Sequence record: NC_014662.1
DNA from: Enterobacter phage CC31
Strand: one strand, 5' to 3'
Length of the DNA: 64,000 nt
Below, one piece after another: positions 10,751 to 61,684 of this stretch; within the stretch, counting starts at the first letter, position 1; every line of letters starts with the position of its first letter. Both the position numbers and the translations under genes were made by a program. The notes beneath the pieces are model-generated. The model saw only the letters and a program-made list of their open reading frames with translations. It searched no databases and was not told where the DNA came from.

Positions 10751-11332
10751 TTATAGAGGGATTACTTTATACTTCTTATTGCCACGAGCATCACGCTTAC
10801 AAACTAATTTGCACTTCATGCCGCTTGTGATAGTGTAATCTTCATCAACCTTCATCCGCATCCAGTCTAATACCATTCCAGATGGGTTCAAAGATTTTTC
10901 AACTTCAACCATAATTTTAGTGCCAGACTTATAAAACTTAGATTCTTGTTGCTCATAGTCAGATAGTGCGCGAGCAAACGCAGATGGGCTTAAGAATTTA
11001 TTATAACCGTGAGCAGCAGCCACAAATGTATTATCTAAAGCATGTTTGATATTTTTGATTACGACTGTTGCGTAACCGATGTGTTTTTCTGGATAGTGAG
11101 TCATTACAAAGTCCTCATGAACTGCGAAAGTTTTTTGATGACGAGATTTTACATCAACATTTGATAAGCGTTTACGATAAACCACTTTCTCTTTTCGTTT
11201 AGATTTAGCTTTTGCCGATTCAACTTTAGCATAATATAAAGCTGCTTCTTCGGGTTTAATACCCGCTTCTCTCGCAATTTCAATAAAACTCAATCCGCAC
11301 TCATGCTTAAAATGAATCTCAATCGGTGTCAT
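10751..11332 (-). CDS. hypothetical protein with N-terminal helix-turn-helix-like segment
   Basis: 193 aa; GLSFIEIAREAGIKPEEA resembles an HTH; lysine-rich linker. Confidence 0.65.
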   Translation of the reverse strand: MTPIEIHFKHECGLSFIEIAREAGIKPEEAALYYAKVESAKAKSKRKEKVVYRKRLSNVDVKSRHQKTFAVHEDFVMTHYPEKHIGYATVVIKNIKHALDNTFVAAAHGYNKFLSPSAFARALSDYEQQESKFYKSGTKIMVEVEKSLNPSGMVLDWMRMKVDEDYTITSGMKCKLVCKRDARGNKKYKVIPL

Positions 11333-11377
11333 GGTAATATCCTACAGTAAAAGATGTTGATATAATACCACTCTCCA

Positions 11378-22794: not shown

Positions 22795-22799
22795 AAAAA

Positions 22800-22829
22800 G
22801 GGAGCCGCAAGGCTCCCTTTGTTTTATTT
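22800..22829 (+). terminator. intrinsic terminator after gene 54
   Basis: GGGAGCC-GCAA-GGCTCCC followed by TTTGTTTTATTT; hairpin identical to the one after gene 23. Confidence 0.75.
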
Positions 22830-23140: not shown

Positions 23141-23171
23141 TATAGTAACACACTTCCATGTGCGTGTAAAC
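23141..23171 (-). promoter_or_regulatory. early promoter (GTTTAC -35, TGTGT-TACTAT -10)
   Basis: Member of an eight-copy family; -35 abuts the alt stop codon. Confidence 0.6.
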
Positions 23172-23173
23172 GG

Positions 23174-25309
23174 TTAAAGAACGAACTTCTCTGGAGTGTC
23201 TTCAACATCAATCATTGAAGCCAACAGAGCAAGAATCTTGTTGCTTTCTGATGCCTTTGTGGACTTAACAAATCCTTCAAAATCATATGGACTTGGTTCA
23301 GGCTGAGGCTCGTCACTGTATTCTACTACTTCACCGGTTTCCATAAGAACGTCACCATCATAAACAACAGCTTCGTCTAACTGGTCAGCTGTCATTACTT
23401 CGCCTTGGATGAATTTCTGATTGTCATACACTAGACCATCACTATAAGAAGCATCTACAATGCTGTTGACTTTCAGCATAGTACCGCGAGGCAGAATAAC
23501 TTCCATTTCACCAGACATGTTGCTCAGGTCACCAGGATAAACAACGTTAACTTTCTCACCACCAGTAATAGCCCAACCAATCATGACTCTCGTGCTTTCC
23601 GCCTGCTGAACGTCTTTAGCTGCATGAACCTCATCAGTAAGACCTAATTCAGCATAAGTCATAGAAGCTAACTTGACAGTTTCTGCACTGTTATCTGGCT
23701 GATTCAATACTGCACGAGTATTATCAGAAGCCATTGCAACCGCTTGGTTACCTTTCCAACCACCAAAAATAATTGGAGACAGAGAAGTTGAAACATAGTT
23801 TCTGAAATAGAATACTCTGTTCTTAACCATTGCTTCAAAAATTGGTTTACGGACTGACTGCGAACGCCATAAGGTAAGTCCTTCTGGAATTCTGTCACCG
23901 CGTTTAAAAGCATCATCCAGATTTTTGATAGCAGTAGTAACTTCTTTATAAGACAGCGTATCGTAATTGTCAGCTCTATAACGGCCTAAAAGCATATTGT
24001 TGATGTCTGAATAGCCGGAACCAACATACTCTTTGATGCCGCGTTTTTCTGCATTTGTATATTGAAGAGGTGTACGAGTACGAGTAATATCTTCGATAGT
24101 AGCAGAAACGTTTTTAGCATAACCTTGAAGAGCAGCTTTAATCATTTTGGTACGTTCAATGTTCCAAAGATTGTTAGCCATTTGCTCTTTATCTTTTGGT
24201 TCAAGGTATTGTGGAACTTTAGTCATGATATGTTCCATTGCTTCATATTTACGCTCTTCTAATGTGTCTAAAAGAGTTTGAGTATATGCTTGCATACTCT
24301 GAACTGAAGTTAATGGAGCATTACCAATTCTTGATTCAAGTTCTTTTACGAATCTCTGCTCAAATTTTTCTGACTGACTTAATTTAATTGTAGTCAGTGA
24401 TTTCAAATGGAATATAGCTCCAGTGGCTGCCAATTGAGCAGAACGAGCTTTAGCCGCTTTAGATTCTACCGCGTCCTTTAACTGCTGAGCTTCCGGAATA
24501 GGATTTGCTGTAGCTGGTTTACTGAATTCAGCAGCAGTGGCTTCATACTTTTCAAATTCTTCCGGGTCATGAATGATATCAGAAGTTAATGATTGACTTG
24601 CCGCAACTTGACGACGAGATACCTTAGCACGAGCAATAACAGATTGGTCAGTACGTTTGTCATTCTCTTGAGCAATAGTAGCTGCTAACGCTTCCGATTT
24701 AGAAACTTGCTTACCTGACTTATTGTTGATGTAAACATCACCGACCGCAGTGTCAACCTTAGTGAACTCTTCTGTTGATATCTCTGGGATGCCAGGGATG
24801 GTCGAGAGGTCAACATTCTTACGATGAATAAGAACATATACGTACTTCTTATCGTAATCATAGAGTTCTTTCAGGATAACAAAACGACCACCCAGACGAC
24901 TCATCACCAAACGGTTGATAATCATCTGCACTGCTCGAGCTTGTCCACCCATCTTAGACTTATTGATGCGGAACATTACAGCATCCATTTTGTATTTCTT
25001 CACAGTTTGAGATACTAAGTCAAACATGGTAGAAATAACACCCAATGGATTGCCACCAAGATTTTTCAGCTTAACCAAAGTACCTTTTTCAGATACACCG
25101 AGCACAATAGCATGCATCATTTTATCACCAGGCTTAACGTTCTTGTTAACGTCTCCGCCGCCAGTGTAAGAACACATACGAAGAGCTACTGAACCTTCTG
25201 GAGCAGCAATAGCAAAAATCTGTGGAATTTTAGTTTTCGGATAAAGATTAGTGACCGGAAGCATTTCTGAATCCGCGTCAAAAATCTCATTTAATTGAAA
25301 TTCGGTCAT
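23174..25309 (-). CDS. alt: Alt ADP-ribosyltransferase
   Basis: ~711 aa; N-terminal TNLYPKTKIPQIF and YVLIHRKNV blocks match recalled T4 Alt; late promoter upstream. Confidence 0.85.
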   Translation of the reverse strand: MTEFQLNEIFDADSEMLPVTNLYPKTKIPQIFAIAAPEGSVALRMCSYTGGGDVNKNVKPGDKMMHAIVLGVSEKGTLVKLKNLGGNPLGVISTMFDLVSQTVKKYKMDAVMFRINKSKMGGQARAVQMIINRLVMSRLGGRFVILKELYDYDKKYVYVLIHRKNVDLSTIPGIPEISTEEFTKVDTAVGDVYINNKSGKQVSKSEALAATIAQENDKRTDQSVIARAKVSRRQVAASQSLTSDIIHDPEEFEKYEATAAEFSKPATANPIPEAQQLKDAVESKAAKARSAQLAATGAIFHLKSLTTIKLSQSEKFEQRFVKELESRIGNAPLTSVQSMQAYTQTLLDTLEERKYEAMEHIMTKVPQYLEPKDKEQMANNLWNIERTKMIKAALQGYAKNVSATIEDITRTRTPLQYTNAEKRGIKEYVGSGYSDINNMLLGRYRADNYDTLSYKEVTTAIKNLDDAFKRGDRIPEGLTLWRSQSVRKPIFEAMVKNRVFYFRNYVSTSLSPIIFGGWKGNQAVAMASDNTRAVLNQPDNSAETVKLASMTYAELGLTDEVHAAKDVQQAESTRVMIGWAITGGEKVNVVYPGDLSNMSGEMEVILPRGTMLKVNSIVDASYSDGLVYDNQKFIQGEVMTADQLDEAVVYDGDVLMETGEVVEYSDEPQPEPSPYDFEGFVKSTKASESNKILALLASMIDVEDTPEKFVL

Positions 25310-25340: not shown

Positions 25341-25363
25341 GACAACAAAAGCCCCGAAGGGCT

Positions 25364-25582
25364 TTAGACTGCAATAATATTCCTGAAGATTTCAACCTTT
25401 CCACCGCCACGGGTAGCAATGACCTCATGCTTGTTAATTCCGGAAACTCGACCATCTGTAAATGATTCCACTTCACCCTGTGGACGGAATGGTAATTCGA
25501 CCAAACTCTGTGTTACATTAGCGGCTCGTCCTGAGCCTTCACCTGGATGAGCAATTGTGATAATTTCTAAATAGAATTTCAT
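25364..25582 (-). CDS. hypothetical protein
   Basis: 72 aa, ATGA overlap with gene 30 stop. Confidence 0.55.
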   Translation of the reverse strand: MKFYLEIITIAHPGEGSGRAANVTQSLVELPFRPQGEVESFTDGRVSGINKHEVIATRGGGKVEIFRNIIAV

Positions 25583-29330: not shown

Positions 29331-29369
29331 AACTATTTCCTCAAGTAGAGGGGCCGAAGCCCCTAATTT

Positions 29370-29732
29370 TTAGATTACGAATTCGTTTGAAACGATATCC
29401 CAAATTGCTTCACGTTGTTCTTCAGTAGTTTTGAGGCTGAGAACATGACGCAGATAAAGTTTAACCAGAATTTTACGATTATCACCGTTCCAAGAAGGAT
29501 GAGTTCCTAAATCGCGAGTACGATGATCATCGTGGAAACCAATTGAAATGACTGAACCTTTGAGTTTGACGTCTAAGGTTGGGCCATTTTCAAAACTGAT
29601 GAAGACGTAGTTATCTTCCCAGTACATATCGATTTGAGCAACTGTGCCATTTTTATGTTCCCAGAGTAAAGTTGTTGAAACGTCCCATGCATTATCTTGA
29701 ACGTATTTTCTGTTAAAGTTTGTGAAGTTCAT
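29370..29732 (-). CDS. hypothetical protein
   Basis: 120 aa; preceded by early promoter and ACGGAG ribosome-binding site. Confidence 0.6.
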   Translation of the reverse strand: MNFTNFNRKYVQDNAWDVSTTLLWEHKNGTVAQIDMYWEDNYVFISFENGPTLDVKLKGSVISIGFHDDHRTRDLGTHPSWNGDNRKILVKLYLRHVLSLKTTEEQREAIWDIVSNEFVI

Positions 29733-29766
29733 TTTGTTCTCCGTTGTATCTGTTTGTTTTTGAGTT

Positions 29767-29799
29767 TATATACTAACACATACAACGGAGGATGTAAAC
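29767..29799 (-). promoter_or_regulatory. early promoter (GTTTAC -35, TGTGT-TAGTAT -10)
   Basis: Family member; 18-nt spacer. Confidence 0.6.
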
Positions 29800-29802
29800 G
29801 GT

Positions 29803-30324
29803 TTAGTTCACTTCTGTGAAAATTGTTTGAGGAACTTGCTCGGTTTTGGCAGTTGCAATCATCTTCATAATGGCAGCTTTTCCTTCAATGTTTTTACGCA
29901 AGAACGACTTGCATGCATCATGAGCTTCTTCGGACGTCATAAGCGTAGCTATTGAACGCGCTTCCCCTACTTGGTCCAGATTCAACCAAACGTTTTCTTT
30001 CTTAGTCTGGCCAAAAGCCGCATACATCACTTCAACGGTCTTTTCTTCAGTTTCAATCAGAAAATTTTTAATTTCATTTGAAGTAAACCAAGGACACGAA
30101 TCGCCATTCATACCATCAATATCAGCACCCTTTGGACTTATCCAGCCTTCATTTTCAAATCGGATAAGACCAATAGAACCTGAAGCAATTGCTTCACCCT
30201 TTGCAATGTAAAAAGGTCTGTCACCGATATAATCGGCAATCAATTGATTTACTCGCTGATTGCATCCTTCAGCGAACTTTAAAAAACCTTCTTTGTCTAA
30301 GCGGTACAGAACATCACTTTTCAT
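29803..30324 (-). CDS. hypothetical protein
   Basis: 173 aa ORF in the early gene run. Confidence 0.6.
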   Translation of the reverse strand: MKSDVLYRLDKEGFLKFAEGCNQRVNQLIADYIGDRPFYIAKGEAIASGSIGLIRFENEGWISPKGADIDGMNGDSCPWFTSNEIKNFLIETEEKTVEVMYAAFGQTKKENVWLNLDQVGEARSIATLMTSEEAHDACKSFLRKNIEGKAAIMKMIATAKTEQVPQTIFTEVN

Positions 30325-30348: not shown

Positions 30349-30723
30349 CTAGAACATTTTACGTTCGGTCCAGTTATCAAGATTAACTGTGCCAGTTTTC
30401 TTCATTTTCTCAATCAAGTTATCTGCGCGAGTGCGTCCATTTTCATACCACACTACATCTTCAGAATAACCATCTTCGTCTTCATAAGTTTCTGAACGAA
30501 TGTGACCGTGAATGCTTGTTTTCAAAACGTATTCAGAGCCAGTGAACCAGTTAGTCAAAACGATGTACCAGCAGAAATCAGTAGATGGACCATCAGGAGT
30601 CATACAGTGAACTACATCTCCTTGCCATGAAGACAGATGCCACATTGGCTCTTCTACTTCAATTGCTTTATATCCGTCATGGTCTTTCGTTTTGATTTTA
30701 GCGTTCAGATTAATTGTGTTCAT
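30349..30723 (-). CDS. hypothetical protein
   Basis: Trimmed to MNTINLN behind early promoter and ACGGAG ribosome-binding site. Confidence 0.6.
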   Translation of the reverse strand: MNTINLNAKIKTKDHDGYKAIEVEEPMWHLSSWQGDVVHCMTPDGPSTDFCWYIVLTNWFTGSEYVLKTSIHGHIRSETYEDEDGYSEDVVWYENGRTRADNLIEKMKKTGTVNLDNWTERKMF

Positions 30724-30758
30724 TTTATTCTCCGTTACCATATTGGTTATTGAGATTC

Positions 30759-30789
30759 TATCATAACACAACTTTCAACAGATGTAAAC
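30759..30789 (-). promoter_or_regulatory. early promoter (GTTTAC -35, TGTGT-TATGAT -10)
   Basis: Family member. Confidence 0.55.
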
Positions 30790-30791
30790 GG

Positions 30792-30995
30792 TTAGAGTTT
30801 TTCGCAACTATGATATTCAGTATCTGTCCAAATACCAAATGACGGCAATGATTCTAGCATTGAGTTTCCGACTTTAACTGCGTCTTCCCATGGCCAAAGC
30901 GTAGCAACCTTTTCATAGAAAAAGATTGAATCCATGTGTGAATATTCTGCTGGGTATTCTGATGTAACTTTGAAAATAAATTTACGCTTAAACAT
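30792..30995 (-). CDS. hypothetical protein
   Basis: 67 aa ORF. Confidence 0.45.
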   Translation of the reverse strand: MFKRKFIFKVTSEYPAEYSHMDSIFFYEKVATLWPWEDAVKVGNSMLESLPSFGIWTDTEYHSCEKL

Positions 30996-31008: not shown

Positions 31009-31036
31009 ACAAAAAAGGGACTCCCGAAGGAGTCCC
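31009..31036 (-). terminator. intrinsic terminator (minus strand)
   Basis: GGGACTCC-TTCG-GGAGTCCC on minus strand followed by TTTTTTGTTT. Confidence 0.65.
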
Positions 31037-36945: not shown

Positions 36946-37298
36946 TTGGTGGCCTCCTGAAACTCTAGAGTCAATTTGTTGAAAGACTCATTTAACTGCT
37001 TTTCAACCAGCTTAGGCTTAGCTTTGACCACATGCTCACGCTTGGCATCTTTAGCCATTTTAGCGTCAGACTTATCAGCCTCTGCTCTGTTTTCTTTACG
37101 AGTCTCATCATACTTATTGAGATTCACAAAGTCTGTTTTTAACTTTTCAATAGCTTTGCCATTAGCTTCAGCTATTTGTTGCATTTGCTTAAGGTCTTCT
37201 TTTAAGCCATCAATCCGTGAAGATTGATATTGAATGAACCCATAAGCTGTTAATCCGAGCGCCACTAAAATGACGTGGATGTTTGTTATTTTGAACAT
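36942..37298 (-). CDS. inner-membrane spanin (Rz-like; T4 pseT.3 position)
   Basis: N-terminal TM helix (ITNIHVILVALGLTAYGFI) followed by charged coiled-coil region. Confidence 0.7.
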   Translation of the reverse strand: MFKITNIHVILVALGLTAYGFIQYQSSRIDGLKEDLKQMQQIAEANGKAIEKLKTDFVNLNKYDETRKENRAEADKSDAKMAKDAKREHVVKAKPKLVEKQLNESFNKLTLEFQEATK

Positions 37299-37792
37299 AA
37301 TTTGATGATTGCCTGTACAATATCGTCCTGAGAAAGACCATTGATAAGAATATGATGTTCAGCAGGAGAGTTTTGAATTTTGAAGCAAGGGTCCACCATC
37401 TCTGCCATTTCTGAAGCAGAAAGACGAGGATTTGAAACACCCAGACGATGCTTTCCATAGATTGGGTCTACGATGATGTAGCACTTACAACCATTTACAT
37501 GAACGTTTGGTTGGGAAATGTTAATCATCACTTCTGCGCCGTACTTGGTCAGATGATTATCTAAGAAGCTGCGCATTTCTTCTACTGCTTCAGGCATCTT
37601 CTCAGCACGTTCTTCATTTACCCGATTGCTGTATTCTTTACGAGCCTTTTGACGCTTTTGGTCGCGAGAGTAAGCTACACGTAAATCAGTGATGTAACCC
37701 AGAGGACGAGAATTTTTGAAAATACGAATCCCGTCATGGTGTGTACCTTCGTAAATTTCTACTAGCTCTTCGGCAGTGATTAAGTTCAGCAT
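37286..37792 (-). CDS. alc: Alc-like protein (transcription termination on dC-DNA), by position
   Basis: 168 aa at the T4 alc position between spanins and rnlA; early promoter upstream; sequence identity not verified. Confidence 0.55.
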   Translation of the reverse strand: MLNLITAEELVEIYEGTHHDGIRIFKNSRPLGYITDLRVAYSRDQKRQKARKEYSNRVNEERAEKMPEAVEEMRSFLDNHLTKYGAEVMINISQPNVHVNGCKCYIIVDPIYGKHRLGVSNPRLSASEMAEMVDPCFKIQNSPAEHHILINGLSQDDIVQAIIKLCSK

Positions 37793-37822
37793 TTCGTTTT
37801 CTCCATTTGGTTAGTGTAGAGA

Positions 37823-37853
37823 CATAGTAACACAATCAAATGGAGATGTAAAC
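37823..37853 (-). promoter_or_regulatory. early promoter upstream of alc
   Basis: Family member. Confidence 0.6.
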
Positions 37854-37855
37854 GG

Positions 37856-38986
37856 TTAGATGTACTCAGCCGGAGTGAATGGCTTTGTGTTCTTCAAGAA
37901 TGCACAGTTGAGCTTGGTGATGAGCTGGTCGTCATCAAGGTCTCCTGCATACATTTTCATGATGATACCGAAAACTTGAGGTAGACCGGCCAATGCGGTT
38001 TCAGCTTGAGCGTTTGCTGCGTAAGACTTACGGTCTTTACCACGATGAGTAGCATAGAAGTCCTGGCACAGCTTAAGAGAAGAACGCAGATAGTTCAAGT
38101 ACTGAGTTTCGAAAGCATTGATTTTACCCAACGCAAACTCGTCAGAATCGAACATACCACGAAGGTCATCTGCCGCGTTATTCACGATGCACTCAAACAG
38201 ACGCTCGTTGTTGATAATGGAGTCTTTGGTGTGGTGCAGAGCCGTGTACCATTCGGTTTTCAGCTTAAAGCGTAAACCATCTTCCATAACCATCACGTAA
38301 CCTTCGATTTGCTCTTCAGCTCGAAGCTTGGAAACAAAATCACCTTTAGGAACTTCAAAGGCTTCTACCAGATACTTACGAAAAACTGGATGAGCCAGAA
38401 GGTCTTCGTAGTCAACATACTCACCAGTATCGTTTTCACGAACGTTCAGAAGAACAAGCATCTTTTTAGGATAGCTCAGAACAATTCGGTTCTGCGGAGA
38501 GCAGTATTCGAAGTTAGCGGTGAAGCCATCTTTTGCTAAATCAATCAGAGCTTCAGCCAAATCCAAATGCTCAATACTTGCCAGCATTGCAGAAGCTTCA
38601 ACAGCCTGCTCAGATTTGATAGAAGTCTTAGACTTAAAGCGAATACGATTTTCGCCGTCTAGATAAGTAGAAACCAAAGAACCATCTTCTTTAGCCAGCA
38701 TGTACTTAACTTTGGAAAGGTCTAGATTCATTGTGAACGGAGTTTCATTCAGGTTGAAGAACTTTTCCATTGGACGAGATGCAATACGCACTGGGATGTC
38801 ATCAACATCAAGTTCAAACATGATGCCACGGCACTCTAATGCAGACGGCAGAAGCCAGTCAGAGTAAGATGCGTAATGGTAAGAAAACGTGCGGTATTTG
38901 TACCCCATTGGAGATACATCATCACGGTAGAAGAAACGAGTTTCATCGTTACATAGAGTCATGAGCTCATTGAATAATTTTTTCAC
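37856..38986 (-). CDS. rnlA: RNA ligase 1
   Basis: 376 aa; blocks RIASRPMEKFFNLNE, KEDGSLVSTYLDG, GFTANFE match recalled T4 Rnl1. Confidence 0.9.
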   Translation of the reverse strand: MKKLFNELMTLCNDETRFFYRDDVSPMGYKYRTFSYHYASYSDWLLPSALECRGIMFELDVDDIPVRIASRPMEKFFNLNETPFTMNLDLSKVKYMLAKEDGSLVSTYLDGENRIRFKSKTSIKSEQAVEASAMLASIEHLDLAEALIDLAKDGFTANFEYCSPQNRIVLSYPKKMLVLLNVRENDTGEYVDYEDLLAHPVFRKYLVEAFEVPKGDFVSKLRAEEQIEGYVMVMEDGLRFKLKTEWYTALHHTKDSIINNERLFECIVNNAADDLRGMFDSDEFALGKINAFETQYLNYLRSSLKLCQDFYATHRGKDRKSYAANAQAETALAGLPQVFGIIMKMYAGDLDDDQLITKLNCAFLKNTKPFTPAEYI

Positions 38987-44475: not shown

Positions 44476-44822
44476 TGGTTTCCTGGACGAAAGAAGATTT
44501 CACGGCCTTGTTTATCAAAACGACCAAAAACAGTCATCGTATTACCGGAGATAACAACGTTACCTTTAGCAATATGATGAATTGTTTGACGAGTGTTCAT
44601 CATAATTTTAACACCTAAACCATGAGCAATTCTGATGCCTTCATCAGCTGCCCAAGTGTCATTGATTTCAACGTCAATACGATAAAATCCATGAGGAATT
44701 GTTTTGTACAGCTCAGGTTTACGCTTATACTGTTCAATAGTAGGAGGATTACCCTCGATTACTAAAGCCCAATTCTTTTGGGCTTCTTCTTGTATCAACG
44801 TCAAATGATTATTGATTTTCAT
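44472..44822 (-). CDS. hypothetical protein, paralog B of a tandem pair
   Basis: Shares HG.Y and GNV..S.G..T..G.F.K.G...FF.P blocks with 44809..45129; start codon uncertain (ORF-track start 44879). Confidence 0.55.
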   Translation of the reverse strand: MKINNHLTLIQEEAQKNWALVIEGNPPTIEQYKRKPELYKTIPHGFYRIDVEINDTWAADEGIRIAHGLGVKIMMNTRQTIHHIAKGNVVISGNTMTVFGRFDKQGREIFFRPGNQ

Positions 44823-46804: not shown

Positions 46805-47088
46805 TATTTTGGTTCCTTTTTAGCAATTTTCCAGGCCGCTTTGAAAGCTTCGACTTCAGAAATTTCAATCCAAAAACCGCTGCCAAAGCCATCGTTATAG
46901 CAGGGACAGCCATCGCAGTAATTGTCCCAAGTAAGTACCAGACCATCACCACGAACAGCACCAGTTTCCATTTCGCGAAGGCGATCTTCAGCAGCTTCAA
47001 TAACTTCTGGGTCATTCCCTTCAATGATAAAGTACCACTTGCCATTGTATTCGCTTCCGAGTTTAATTGATTGACGTTGAAGTTTCAT
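46804..47088 (-). CDS. hypothetical protein
   Basis: Trimmed to MKLQRQ behind early promoter and GGAG ribosome-binding site; CDGCPC motif. Confidence 0.55.
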   Translation of the reverse strand: MKLQRQSIKLGSEYNGKWYFIIEGNDPEVIEAAEDRLREMETGAVRGDGLVLTWDNYCDGCPCYNDGFGSGFWIEISEVEAFKAAWKIAKKEPK

Positions 47089-47114
47089 TTTGTTCTCCTT
47101 TGTTTTGATAGGGC

Positions 47115-47145
47115 TATAGTAACACACCATAGCCCTGATGTAAAC
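47115..47145 (-). promoter_or_regulatory. early promoter
   Basis: Family member; -10 flanked by GGGCTAT/ATAGCCC inverted repeat. Confidence 0.6.
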
Positions 47146-47147
47146 GG

Positions 47148-47396
47148 TTAGTCGTCTACTTTTAGCAACTTTTTGAAAGCATCAAATGTTTTCATATGCT
47201 TAGCTTCAACATAAACATGCTTAACCATCTTGCCTTCAAGTGAGAAGACTTCAACTACCAAGTCATAGCACTCATCTTCAACGAGTTTCATGCATTTTGG
47301 AGTAGAAGCTTTGTCAAACAGCTGTACCAAGTTGTTGCCAGCCCAGATGTTTTTGCTGCCATCATAGCTATAATCTTCAGAAAGAACATAAAACAT
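47148..47396 (-). CDS. hypothetical protein
   Basis: Trimmed to MFYVLSEDY; longer N-terminus would read through an intergenic hairpin. Confidence 0.55.
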   Translation of the reverse strand: MFYVLSEDYSYDGSKNIWAGNNLVQLFDKASTPKCMKLVEDECYDLVVEVFSLEGKMVKHVYVEAKHMKTFDAFKKLLKVDD

Positions 47397-47428: not shown

Positions 47429-47701
47429 TTAAGCGGTGTAATCTTCCATCATTTCCATGATGTATTCATAATCTTCTTCGTCTTGAGCATAAAAATTCTT
47501 AACCCAAAGACCGATGTCTACTTGATGACCAATTAATTTAATTTCTGGCCATCCGTCGCCTTGACCACTTTCATTTACAACTTCAAATTTCAAACCACTA
47601 AACGGGCTATTGAAACGAGAGCCATCGTCAAACTGCAAATCAACTACTTTACCATTTTCTTTAACGAGGTCGCATACGATGTCAATTACAAGTTGTTTCA
47701 T
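47429..47701 (-). CDS. hypothetical protein
   Basis: 90 aa behind early promoter. Confidence 0.55.
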   Translation of the reverse strand: MKQLVIDIVCDLVKENGKVVDLQFDDGSRFNSPFSGLKFEVVNESGQGDGWPEIKLIGHQVDIGLWVKNFYAQDEEDYEYIMEMMEDYTA

Positions 47702-47730: not shown

Positions 47731-47763
47731 GCTATAATACCACATCCATGTGGTGATGTAAAC
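47731..47763 (-). promoter_or_regulatory. early promoter (GTTTAC -35, TGG-TATTAT -10)
   Basis: Family member; palindrome CCACATCCATGTGG in the spacer. Confidence 0.6.
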
Positions 47764-47765
47764 GG

Positions 47766-47990
47766 TTAGTTGCAAATTTCAGAAATAGTGTCAGCCAAGA
47801 ATTCGCCAGTTTCGTCAGCGCCTACGCAGTAAGATTCAGTTAAGAATTTTACAATTTTCTCACGAGGACCGAATACTTTGTATTCATATCCCCATTCTAC
47901 ATCGCCTGCTAATTCGCAGTTAAGACCAAATTGTTCAACTTCAGCTTCGAAATGTTCTTCATCTGCAACGCCGAGATAGATATGTGCCAT
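47766..47990 (-). CDS. hypothetical protein
   Basis: 74 aa behind early promoter. Confidence 0.55.
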   Translation of the reverse strand: MAHIYLGVADEEHFEAEVEQFGLNCELAGDVEWGYEYKVFGPREKIVKFLTESYCVGADETGEFLADTISEICN

Positions 47991-48021
47991 TTTGTTTTAC
48001 TCCGTTTGGTTGGTGTAAGAG

Positions 48022-48052
48022 TATAGTAACACAGCTTAAAGCGGATGTAAAC
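48022..48052 (-). promoter_or_regulatory. early promoter
   Basis: Family member, just downstream of the palindromic repeat pair. Confidence 0.6.
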
Positions 48053-48059
48053 GGCAGAA

Positions 48060-61392: not shown

Positions 61393-61424
61393 TTATAATA
61401 ACACAGTCTACTGCGAATGTAAAC
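61393..61424 (-). promoter_or_regulatory. early promoter upstream of asiA
   Basis: GTTTAC ... TGTGT-TATTAT, family member. Confidence 0.6.
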
Positions 61425-61426
61425 GG

Positions 61427-61684
61427 TTAGTTCACTACTTCCCAGCGTTGAAGTACATGGCCTGGTAGAGTCACATATTCGTCACCAGAGTCATAGCGAA
61501 TGGCGTAGCGACCATCAATCAACTCAGCTGATATATACCATTCGGCTCCTACTACACGAACCCTACGTTTCATCCAGTGACAAATCTCCATGGCCTCTTG
61601 ATAGCTGTAGTCCACCATGTCACCGAGCGCAAGCTTGTTCATCATTCCTTCAAGATAGCGTTGAATCTCTACTGTCTGGTTCAT
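61427..61684 (-). CDS. hypothetical protein
   Basis: 85 aa ORF. Confidence 0.55.
   Translation of the reverse strand: MNQTVEIQRYLEGMMNKLALGDMVDYSYQEAMEICHWMKRRVRVVGAEWYISAELIDGRYAIRYDSGDEYVTLPGHVLQRWEVVN

Follow-up and report, generated by a model that had tools for sequence, protein, structure and literature searches.

Several genes of bacteriophage T4 and its relatives are known to carry a promoter inside an RNA hairpin that gates their translation, namely e, soc, 49, I-TevI/II/III, segB and the mobE gene of Aeh1 (PMC3014915, PMC2988022). In the e and soc gates a helix sequesters the Shine-Dalgarno (SD) sequence and/or the AUG in RNAs initiated upstream, and the shorter RNA of the internal promoter, which lacks the 5' arm, is translated. 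The e hairpin lowers lysozyme synthesis 100-fold (PMC3014915). The internal promoter is a late one (gp55-dependent TATAAATA) or, for some endonuclease genes, a middle one; the gate delays expression, and the genes known to be so regulated "are all late genes" (PMC2988022). Here we analyze a stretch of 64,000 nucleotides of the T4-like Enterobacter phage CC31 (NC_014662.1; the whole stretch is hereafter called the window), in which two minus-strand early promoters, those of a gp30.7 homologue and of the host-transcription inhibitor gene alc, each lie in an inverted repeat whose 3' arm covers the SD of the gene they serve.

A second described system resembles the layout of these sites. Promoter early stem-loops (PeSLs), known from the T4-type phages RB49/phi1, PST/T4 and nt-1/KVP40, are concentrated in hyperplastic regions (PMC2839356, PMC4122927). 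Like the promoters considered here, they are repeated and have an early promoter that follows the upstream stop codon and precedes the SD and ATG of the next gene, with a stem-loop often between the -35 and -10 or over the -10. The published stem-loops are compact, often with G/C tracts, and were interpreted as sites of termination or attenuation and of recombination. Of the five classes of stem-loop position that have been distinguished, none involves the SD, and the stems of PST/T4 are drawn upstream of the promoter (PMC2839356, PMC4122927).

Early promoters and SD-covering inverted repeats

Searching the whole window for GTTTAC-N17-19-TAnnnT gave 10 matches (2.1 expected), eight of them on the minus strand. 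The 30-nt consensus GTTTACA-N12-TGTGTTANTAT, with up to three mismatches, recovers exactly those eight (0.36 expected), in agreement with the eight minus-strand early promoters of the preliminary description. The G of their GTTTAC is at 61424, 48052, 47763, 47145, 37853, 30789, 29799 and 23171. All are intergenic, with the upstream TAA 2-7 nt before the -35 and the SD and ATG 27-37 nt after the -10, and take the form TAACC-GTTTACA-N-TGTGTTAnTAT, the common frame of the eight cassettes being TAACCGTTTACAT...TGTGTTAnTAT. Each had been described as abutting the stop codon of the upstream gene; this applies to seven, directly preceded by TAA as TAA(A)CC-GTTTAC, and not to the promoter at 48052, where the TAA lies 7 nt upstream.

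At two of the eight, perfect inverted repeats of 10-11 bp had been noted between the -35/-10 spacer and the ribosome-binding site (RBS) of the downstream gene. Both were recovered at exactly the positions given and extend further, to arms of 19 and 13 nt. The internal promoter at both sites is GTTTACA-N17-TAnnAT, that is, the T4 early consensus. The elements, all on the minus strand, are as follows.

29794-29799, minus strand: -35 GTTTAC of the gp30.7-homologue promoter
29772-29790, minus strand: 5' arm CTCCGTTGTATGTGTTAGT, in the -35/-10 spacer and extending into the -10; perfect core 29780-29790
29770-29775, minus strand: -10 hexamer TAGTAT of the gp30.7-homologue promoter; predicted start at about 29762-29765, in the loop
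29739-29757, minus strand: 3' arm ACAAACAGATACAACGGAG; perfect core 29739-29749, containing the SD GGAG at 29739-29742
29370-29732, minus strand: gp30.7 homologue, 120 amino acids (aa), ATG 29732-29730; annotated as 'gp30.7' in PG7
37848-37853, minus strand: -35 GTTTAC of the alc promoter
37834-37846, minus strand: 5' arm TCTCCATTTGATT of alc, wholly inside the spacer; perfect core 37837-37846
37824-37829, minus strand: -10 hexamer TACTAT of the alc promoter; predicted start at about 37817, in the 21-nt loop
37800-37812, minus strand: 3' arm AACCAAATGGAGA of alc; perfect core 37800-37809, containing the SD GGAG at 37801-37804
37286-37792, minus strand: alc, host-transcription inhibitor, 168 aa, ATG 37792-37790; assigned from tblastn matches to annotated Alc and from the PG7 annotation

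In the repeat search the arms of the gp30.7 site are 89% complementary (19 nt, 2 mismatches, 11-nt perfect core, 14-nt loop) and those of the alc site 92% (13 nt, 1 mismatch, 10-nt perfect core, 21-nt loop). Outside the SD the 3' arms consist of AUACAA or AACCAAAU. Both -10 hexamers (29775-29770 and 37829-37824) are positioned between the arms, so that a start about 7 nt (6-8) downstream, as predicted from the -10, would fall in the loop.

The duplex of spacer and RBS has an energy of -20.8 kcal/mol at the gp30.7 site and -15.0 kcal/mol at alc. Shuffled spacers reach -8.2±2.3 and -6.4±2.1 kcal/mol, respectively, and are as good in 0/1000 and 2/1000 cases; spacers cross-paired with the RBSs of other promoters average -7.0 kcal/mol, with a best value of -13.7. 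The z-scores of the hairpins are -5.5 (gp30.7 site) and -5.4 (alc). Spacer-SD complementarity is not significant at the other six promoters, in agreement with the two originally singled out.

Predicted folding and SD accessibility

Read-through RNAs were folded with 100 nt of upstream context, and promoter-proximal RNAs were taken as starting 7 nt after the -10. The minimum free energy (MFE) of the read-through RNA is -27.8 kcal/mol (z -5.4) at the gp30.7 site and -26.6 kcal/mol (z -4.6) at alc, with GGAG fully paired in both, and the predicted proximal RNAs are essentially unstructured (-1.1 and -0.3 kcal/mol, respectively). The MFE structure of alc holds a second short helix, in which CGUUU of the -35 region pairs with AAACG between SD and AUG. 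The check suggested in the preliminary description, folding of read-through versus proximal 5' ends, therefore gives in silico the expected pair of stable SD-pairing hairpins and unstructured RNA.

Accessibility was expressed as opening energy, the free energy needed to expose positions -13 to +2 (SD to AUG), and its difference between read-through and proximal RNA as ddG. Opening energy goes from 2.0 to 15.9 kcal/mol at the gp30.7 site and from 1.2 to 15.5 kcal/mol at alc, a rise of about 14 at each. In the controls, 98 gene starts from T4 and the window that have an SD and no early promoter, the mean difference is 1.3±2.9 kcal/mol; the extreme outliers include I-TevII (12.6), e (9.0), I-TevI (8.5) and segB (8.5). 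These top outliers are T4 cases validated or proposed in the literature, indicating that the measure recovers known gates, and both window sites exceed all four on it.

Covariation in related phages

The alc promoter has five different stem sequences across lineages, T4 included, all of them pairing the spacer with the SD:

Karamvirus: TCTCCATTTGGTT/AACCAAATGGAGA
Contigs L040/L048: CCGTTT/AAACGG
175,437-bp contig: TCCTCATTTTGTTG/CAACAAAATGAGGA, 14 perfect pairs
T4 and T4-like contigs: AAGTCC(C)TCGTGTT/AACATGAGGACTT, one variant changing G.U to A-U
175,774-bp contig: TCTCCTCAG/CTGAGGAGA

Covariation at alc was scored only within one alignable register, the other lineages being compared by eye. 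In that register 96.7% of the cells are paired, 4 of the 13 pairs show double changes and none of 500 shuffles reaches the score; sliding the partner columns cuts pairing to 32-53%. A single consensus structure for all alc orthologues was tried and failed because the stems of the T4-like phages and of the 175,774-bp contig are shifted by 2 nt from the Karamvirus register. At the gp30.7 promoter a divergent relative (L016) has CTCCGAGGTTT/AAACCTCGGAG, with two scored compensatory pairs and an equal score in 8/500 shuffles.

Interior mismatches in 49 distinct promoter stems comprise 15 G.U, 7 A.C and 3 others, several of the A.C lying in doubtful terminal extensions. This G.U bias points to sense-strand RNA rather than DNA. 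Taking the compensatory changes together with the shuffle and cross-pairing controls, complementarity at both sites is far beyond chance.

One 30.7 promoter (L011:1435-1503) combines the 5' arm of a 30.7-type cassette with a leader resembling the 30.8-type of the window (ccaatacggtaacggag). Its stem is broken, apparently by a crossover within the cassette of the kind expected under the PeSL recombination model.

Hairpins at other early promoters of T4-type phages

Promoters matching GTTTAC-N17-19-TAnnnT and followed by an SD and an open reading frame (ORF) were surveyed in the window (8), T4 (35; NC_000866) and PG7 (27, of which 8 are orthologues of those in the window), 70 instances in total, with a hairpin cut-off of z<=-3.4. 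A spacer-anchored hairpin is significant in 26 of the 70. The 3' arms occupy two discrete positions and none between: in 15/26 the arm includes the whole SD and ends 1-8 nt before the ATG, and in the remainder it encloses the -10. Nearly half of the promoter hairpins thus miss the SD, and RBS sequestration explains the SD-covering class and not all promoter hairpins. Within T4 and PG7 the two types, -10-enclosing and SD-covering, are equally common.

Strongly occluded genes are alc, alt.-3, ndd.4, regB, modB, nrdC.8 and 30.8 in T4 (ddG of at least 9.9 kcal/mol) and modB, 30.7, alc, denV and gp151 in PG7, with denV, e.8 and rnh of T4 intermediate. The ndd.4 promoter lies at 24907 of T4 (L032) and that of gp151, downstream of denB, at 47435 of PG7 (L052). 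In some variants the -35 hexamer itself serves as 5' arm and pairs with a GUAAAC that follows the SD; in others the 5' arm sits between the -10 and the start. A ddG of 10 kcal/mol or more is reached by 9/43 promoters of the window and T4 and by 3/98 controls (Fisher p=0.0012). The annotated ATG of T4 ndd.4 (L032:24849-24864), in 'ATGGAGGAAC', lacks an SD; 15 nt further downstream, an in-frame ATG is preceded by a suitably spaced GGAGGAA and is the start occluded by the promoter hairpin, and the annotated start may be wrong.

Extended to this family, the proposal would be that roughly every fifth early promoter in T4 and Karamvirus is built into a hairpin silencing the downstream cistron except in the transcript of its own promoter. 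It would amount to a widespread, previously unrecognized early-only gate, opposite in timing to the late-only gates of e and soc and acting on alc, regB, modB, denV, alt.-3, ndd.4, nrdC.8 and 30.7/30.8. This joint claim is tentative, and we give it somewhat less than an even chance. If true, the gate would contribute to the abrupt shut-off of early proteins when early promoters turn off and would isolate tandem transcription units from one another, perhaps because Rho gains access to read-through RNA that is not translated.

Proposed mechanism and points against it

At the two window sites, a sigma-70-type early promoter would be nested in an RNA hairpin whose 5' arm is its own -35/-10 spacer and whose 3' arm is the SD region of the gene served. 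Polymerase starting at the proximal promoter would begin in the loop and produce an A-rich, unstructured leader only about 25-32 nt long, in which GGAG is free and translation efficient. Polymerase arriving from upstream, with no terminator apparent between the upstream gene and the promoter (stop codon 2-3 nt before the -35), would copy both arms; in this RNA the hairpin would close on the SD once the latter is made, blocking 30S binding. Translation of the gp30.7 homologue and of alc would in this way be coupled to their own early promoters. Three consequences are likely. Synthesis of the protein would last only as long as early promoters are active and would cease at their shut-off, even where longer RNAs continue to run across the gene; tandem strong promoters would not be additive at the protein level; and read-through RNA, left untranslated, would be open to Rho or to decay. 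All computational tests applied agree with the interpretation in the preliminary description, and we put the probability that read-through RNA adopts the hairpins and that these prevent translation of both genes at roughly 0.65. As to biological purpose, we infer early-only expression and the insulation of tandem units.

Several points weigh against this account. The start sites are assumed from the position of the -10, and read-through RNA is assumed from the lack of a terminator. In the window, the spacer-RBS duplexes of the other six promoters are at shuffle level, leaving 6/8 without SD pairing, and 11/26 of the hairpins in the survey belong to the -10-enclosing class, in which the arm begins at the end of the -10, the -10 lies in the loop and SD accessibility is unchanged. 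The alc stem of the window itself has an A.C mismatch where relatives show G-C, and covariation at gp30.7, thin but consistent, rests on one divergent sequence. Furthermore, orthologous promoters differ in class: that of gp30.7, SD-covering here, is -10-enclosing in T4 (GGTACAGG/CCTGTACC) and several IMG/VR phages, and at that of alc the hairpin lies within the spacer in a Mosigvirus and encloses the -10 (17 bp) in an Acinetobacter phage, whereas a Morganella phage has no hairpin there. The SD-covering hairpin at alc is therefore not universal, being absent from these three phages. Such class switching suggests that the selected trait might be any hairpin that only read-through RNA can form; this may be the deeper constant, SD occlusion being incidental. 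Finally, Durand et al. suggest that some of the predicted SD structures may not have time to form in vivo before the nuclease RegB cleaves the nascent RNA (PMC1702504), and kinetics may thus matter.

Alternative explanations

The hairpins could instead be PeSL-type attenuators, terminators or 3'-end stabilizers acting on the upstream transcript, the overlap with the SD being incidental. One stem-loop of RB49/phi1 reduces expression of a downstream lacZ to an extent comparable to rrnB T1 (Arbiol et al. 2010, PMC2839356), and the window cassettes have the PeSL order of stop codon, promoter, stem-loop, SD and ATG; the coexistence of the -10-enclosing class and the switching of orthologous promoters between classes also fit. 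However, the terminator scan found no intrinsic-terminator signature at either site: no U tract follows either stem and loops of 14 and 21 nt are poor for intrinsic termination. The intrinsic-terminator reading of the two sites was rejected accordingly, canonical tetraloop and U-tract terminators being found elsewhere in the window. Moreover, the 3' arms of the SD class always contain the whole SD and never stop mid-leader, the five independent alc stems retain SD pairing despite the cost of a large loop, and the stem-loop positions listed for PeSLs exclude the SD (PMC2839356). We regard this explanation as unlikely. Slightly lower still do we place a role as nuclease shield, in which pairing of GGAG would protect read-through RNA from RegB, which cuts early SDs between GG and AG, or from other RNases, with the corollary that polycistronic RNA survives while promoter-proximal RNA is inactivated. 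The SD at 29739-29749, GGAGAACAAAA, exactly matches the RegB consensus GGAGRAYARAA, secondary structure protects against RegB (PMC3014915, PMC1702504), Karamvirus PG7 encodes regB, and the RegB-cleaved SD of T4 regB itself sits in such a promoter hairpin. Yet the SD of alc, GGAGAAAACGA, has A at position 7 and C at 9, associated with resistance in the consensus study (PMC1702504), and T4 denV, reported to be RegB-resistant by sequence (PMC1702504), also carries a hairpin. Since poor RegB sites retain it, the hairpin does not track RegB-site quality, and shielding was discarded as its main purpose. A protected but paired SD would still be untranslated, which makes shielding an added effect and not an alternative; as a side effect on read-through RNA it is plausible.

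At the DNA level, the repeat around the -10 and start could form a cruciform or single-strand hairpin that alters promoter melting or strength, or could be a recombination hot spot for cassette shuffling. The repeat always brackets the -10, recombination at PeSL cassettes is documented (PMC2839356, PMC4122927) and contig L011 appears recombinant within the cassette. Against this, arms 14-30 nt apart extrude poorly as cruciforms, the sense-strand excess of G.U over A.C (15 versus 7) is not expected from a structure in double-stranded DNA, and recombination needs direct homology between cassettes, not an inverted repeat within one; we consider the possibility remote. A shared protein operator was also discarded, as stem sequences differ between promoters and a common DNA-binding protein is consequently unlikely. 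That the pairing arose by chance, or as a neutral by-product of conservation in promoter and SD, is least credible of all. An ATC after the -35 and the GGAG of the SD are common to all promoters, so that a few complementary bases come free, and six of the eight promoters pair only at shuffle level; but the shuffle and cross-pairing controls exclude chance for both sites, and compensatory changes in several lineages exclude neutrality. Translational gating of read-through RNA is retained as the preferred explanation of the two SD-covering hairpins.

Other promoters and genomic context

The remaining features, all on the minus strand, are listed below.

23142-23171, minus strand: early promoter of an Alt.-3-like gene, without significant spacer-SD pairing
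30760-30789, minus strand: early promoter of a gp30.8-like gene, about 1 kb upstream of the gp30.7 site; weak SD pairing, ddG 5.2 kcal/mol
47110-47136, minus strand: hairpin AGGGCTAT/ATAGCCCT of promoter 47145, enclosing the -10 and ending 21 nt before the ATG; SD free
47739-47754, minus strand: hairpin ACCACAT/ATGTGGT of promoter 47763, extending from the spacer into the beginning of the -10; SD free
47994-48054, minus strand: weak third candidate at promoter 48052, in which CCGTTTAC..TCCG.TTT pairs with AAACGGA-GTAAAAC at and after the SD
61395-61424, minus strand: early promoter without significant hairpin
29803-30324, minus strand: 173-aa ORF upstream of the gp30.7 homologue; TAA stop 29803-29805, 3 nt before the -35
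37856-38986, minus strand: rnlA (PG7 annotation), preceding alc; TAA stop 37856-37858, 2 nt before the -35

The hairpin of promoter 47145 has a z of -3.4 and a ddG of 1.4 kcal/mol. At promoter 48052 the -35 hexamer GTTTAC itself joins the spacer in a weaker RBS-occluding fold (MFE z -2.3), which raises the opening energy from 1.9 to 8.8 kcal/mol (+6.9); its spacer-shuffle test was not significant. The same device, a GTAAAC after the SD, recurs in PG7 at modB (ddG 19 kcal/mol) and at 44589 (L052). Promoters 48052 and 30789 were not counted with the two sites, as their effects on opening energy are only intermediate (6.9 and 5.2 kcal/mol). Promoter 30789 is a likely source of read-through into the gp30.7 homologue. 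A gene start at about 11270-11335 (minus strand) has a Mot-box-like TTGCTT..TATTAT upstream, a TCCT/AGGA pairing and an opening-energy rise of 6.1 kcal/mol, and may be a middle-promoter version of the same gate.

At 23172-23176, 29800-29805, 30790-30794, 37854-37858, 47146-47150, 47764-47768 and 61425-61429 (all minus strand), the conserved cassette, TAACC-GTTTACAT, includes the upstream stop codon; any UP-element-like sequence must consequently fall within the upstream coding region. SD contexts of the form GGAGAAYAAAA, followed by the TG of the start codon and matching the RegB consensus exactly, occur at 29732-29742, 30723-30733 and 47088-47098 (minus strand). Terminators with a G+C stem, a UUCG or GNRA-like tetraloop and a U tract are found at 31017-31036 and 25348-25365 on the minus strand and at 22797-22820 and 29349-29364 on the plus strand, indicating that the phage uses ordinary terminators where needed.

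Around both sites the window is about 91% identical to Karamvirus Enterobacter phages such as PG7, and both hairpin loci are 100% identical to one IMG/VR contig of 165,540 bp (L018, L020). The minus-strand gene order is that of T4 (ligase, 30.x genes, rIII, 31, cd, pseT, alc, rnlA), which places the sites in the regions of gp30-gp31 and rnlA-alc-pseT. Gene content upstream of the 30.7 promoter varies among phages. In T4, alc encodes an early gene product (PMC2988021). A six-codon upstream ORF, ATGGAGAAAACGAAATGCTGA (37786-37806, minus strand), overlaps the alc start and has its own ATG inside the 3' arm of the hairpin; it is not kept in the more distant relatives L040/L048 (CAAACGGAGA). An Rfam search of the whole window at gathering thresholds returned no matches.

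Significance and comparison with known systems

T4-type phages have dozens of very strong tandem early promoters, and most of their early genes lie on several nested transcripts. If the proposed gating is true, protein output would be tied to one promoter and a sharp post-transcriptional off-switch would accompany early-promoter shut-down, the mechanism of which is "not completely understood" (PMC3014915). This would matter most for briefly needed products such as Alc, the RegB nuclease and the ADP-ribosyltransferase ModB. It would also give PeSLs a second, testable function besides termination and recombination, and the T4 examples can be tested directly in the best-studied phage. For annotators and phage engineers it is a warning that early-promoter spacers are not free sequence, as a spacer change or a foreign upstream promoter may switch translation on or off.

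Among systems outside the phages, IS10/Tn10 reportedly shows "protection from external promoters" (fold-back inhibition), described by Davis, Simons and Kleckner in 1985 (listed as reference 24 in PMC13181058) and said to be similar in other insertion sequences; its logic matches that proposed here. External transcripts of IS10 carry a segment that pairs with the transposase RBS, and transcripts from its own promoter start downstream of this segment and are translatable. The setting differs in that a mobile element silences fortuitous read-through from the host, with one site per element, a 5' arm that is not a promoter spacer and no viral temporal program. Valerie et al., writing in Nucleic Acids Research in 1986, are said to have remarked on potential stem-loops before ipIII, ipII, denV and tk.2. 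The literature searched gave no explicit description of early-promoter/SD hairpins, the older print-only T4 literature, which may include earlier remarks, lying outside that search.

With the PeSLs the window shares the repeated cassette, eight promoter copies in 64 kb with significant hairpins at 29799, 37853 and 47145 and none at some promoters; the two sites differ from them in the long-range stem (14-21 nt loop) and in having the SD as 3' arm. The likeness to the e and soc gates noted in the preliminary description extends to the predicted mechanism, an SD helix with a rise in opening energy, and does not extend to the class of promoter, which is early here and late there. In the window sites the promoter is a sigma-70 early one, the 5' arm is the -35/-10 spacer and expression would be confined to the earliest period; given that the e and soc hairpins contain late promoters, the temporal logic would be inverted. 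Judged from sequence, the sites appear to be PeSL-like cassettes whose stem-loop would work as the e and soc gates do, with an early promoter in place of a late one. The promoter-in-hairpin mechanism and the architecture of the PeSL cassette were already known, and what appears to be new here is the combination of an SD-covering hairpin with an early promoter.

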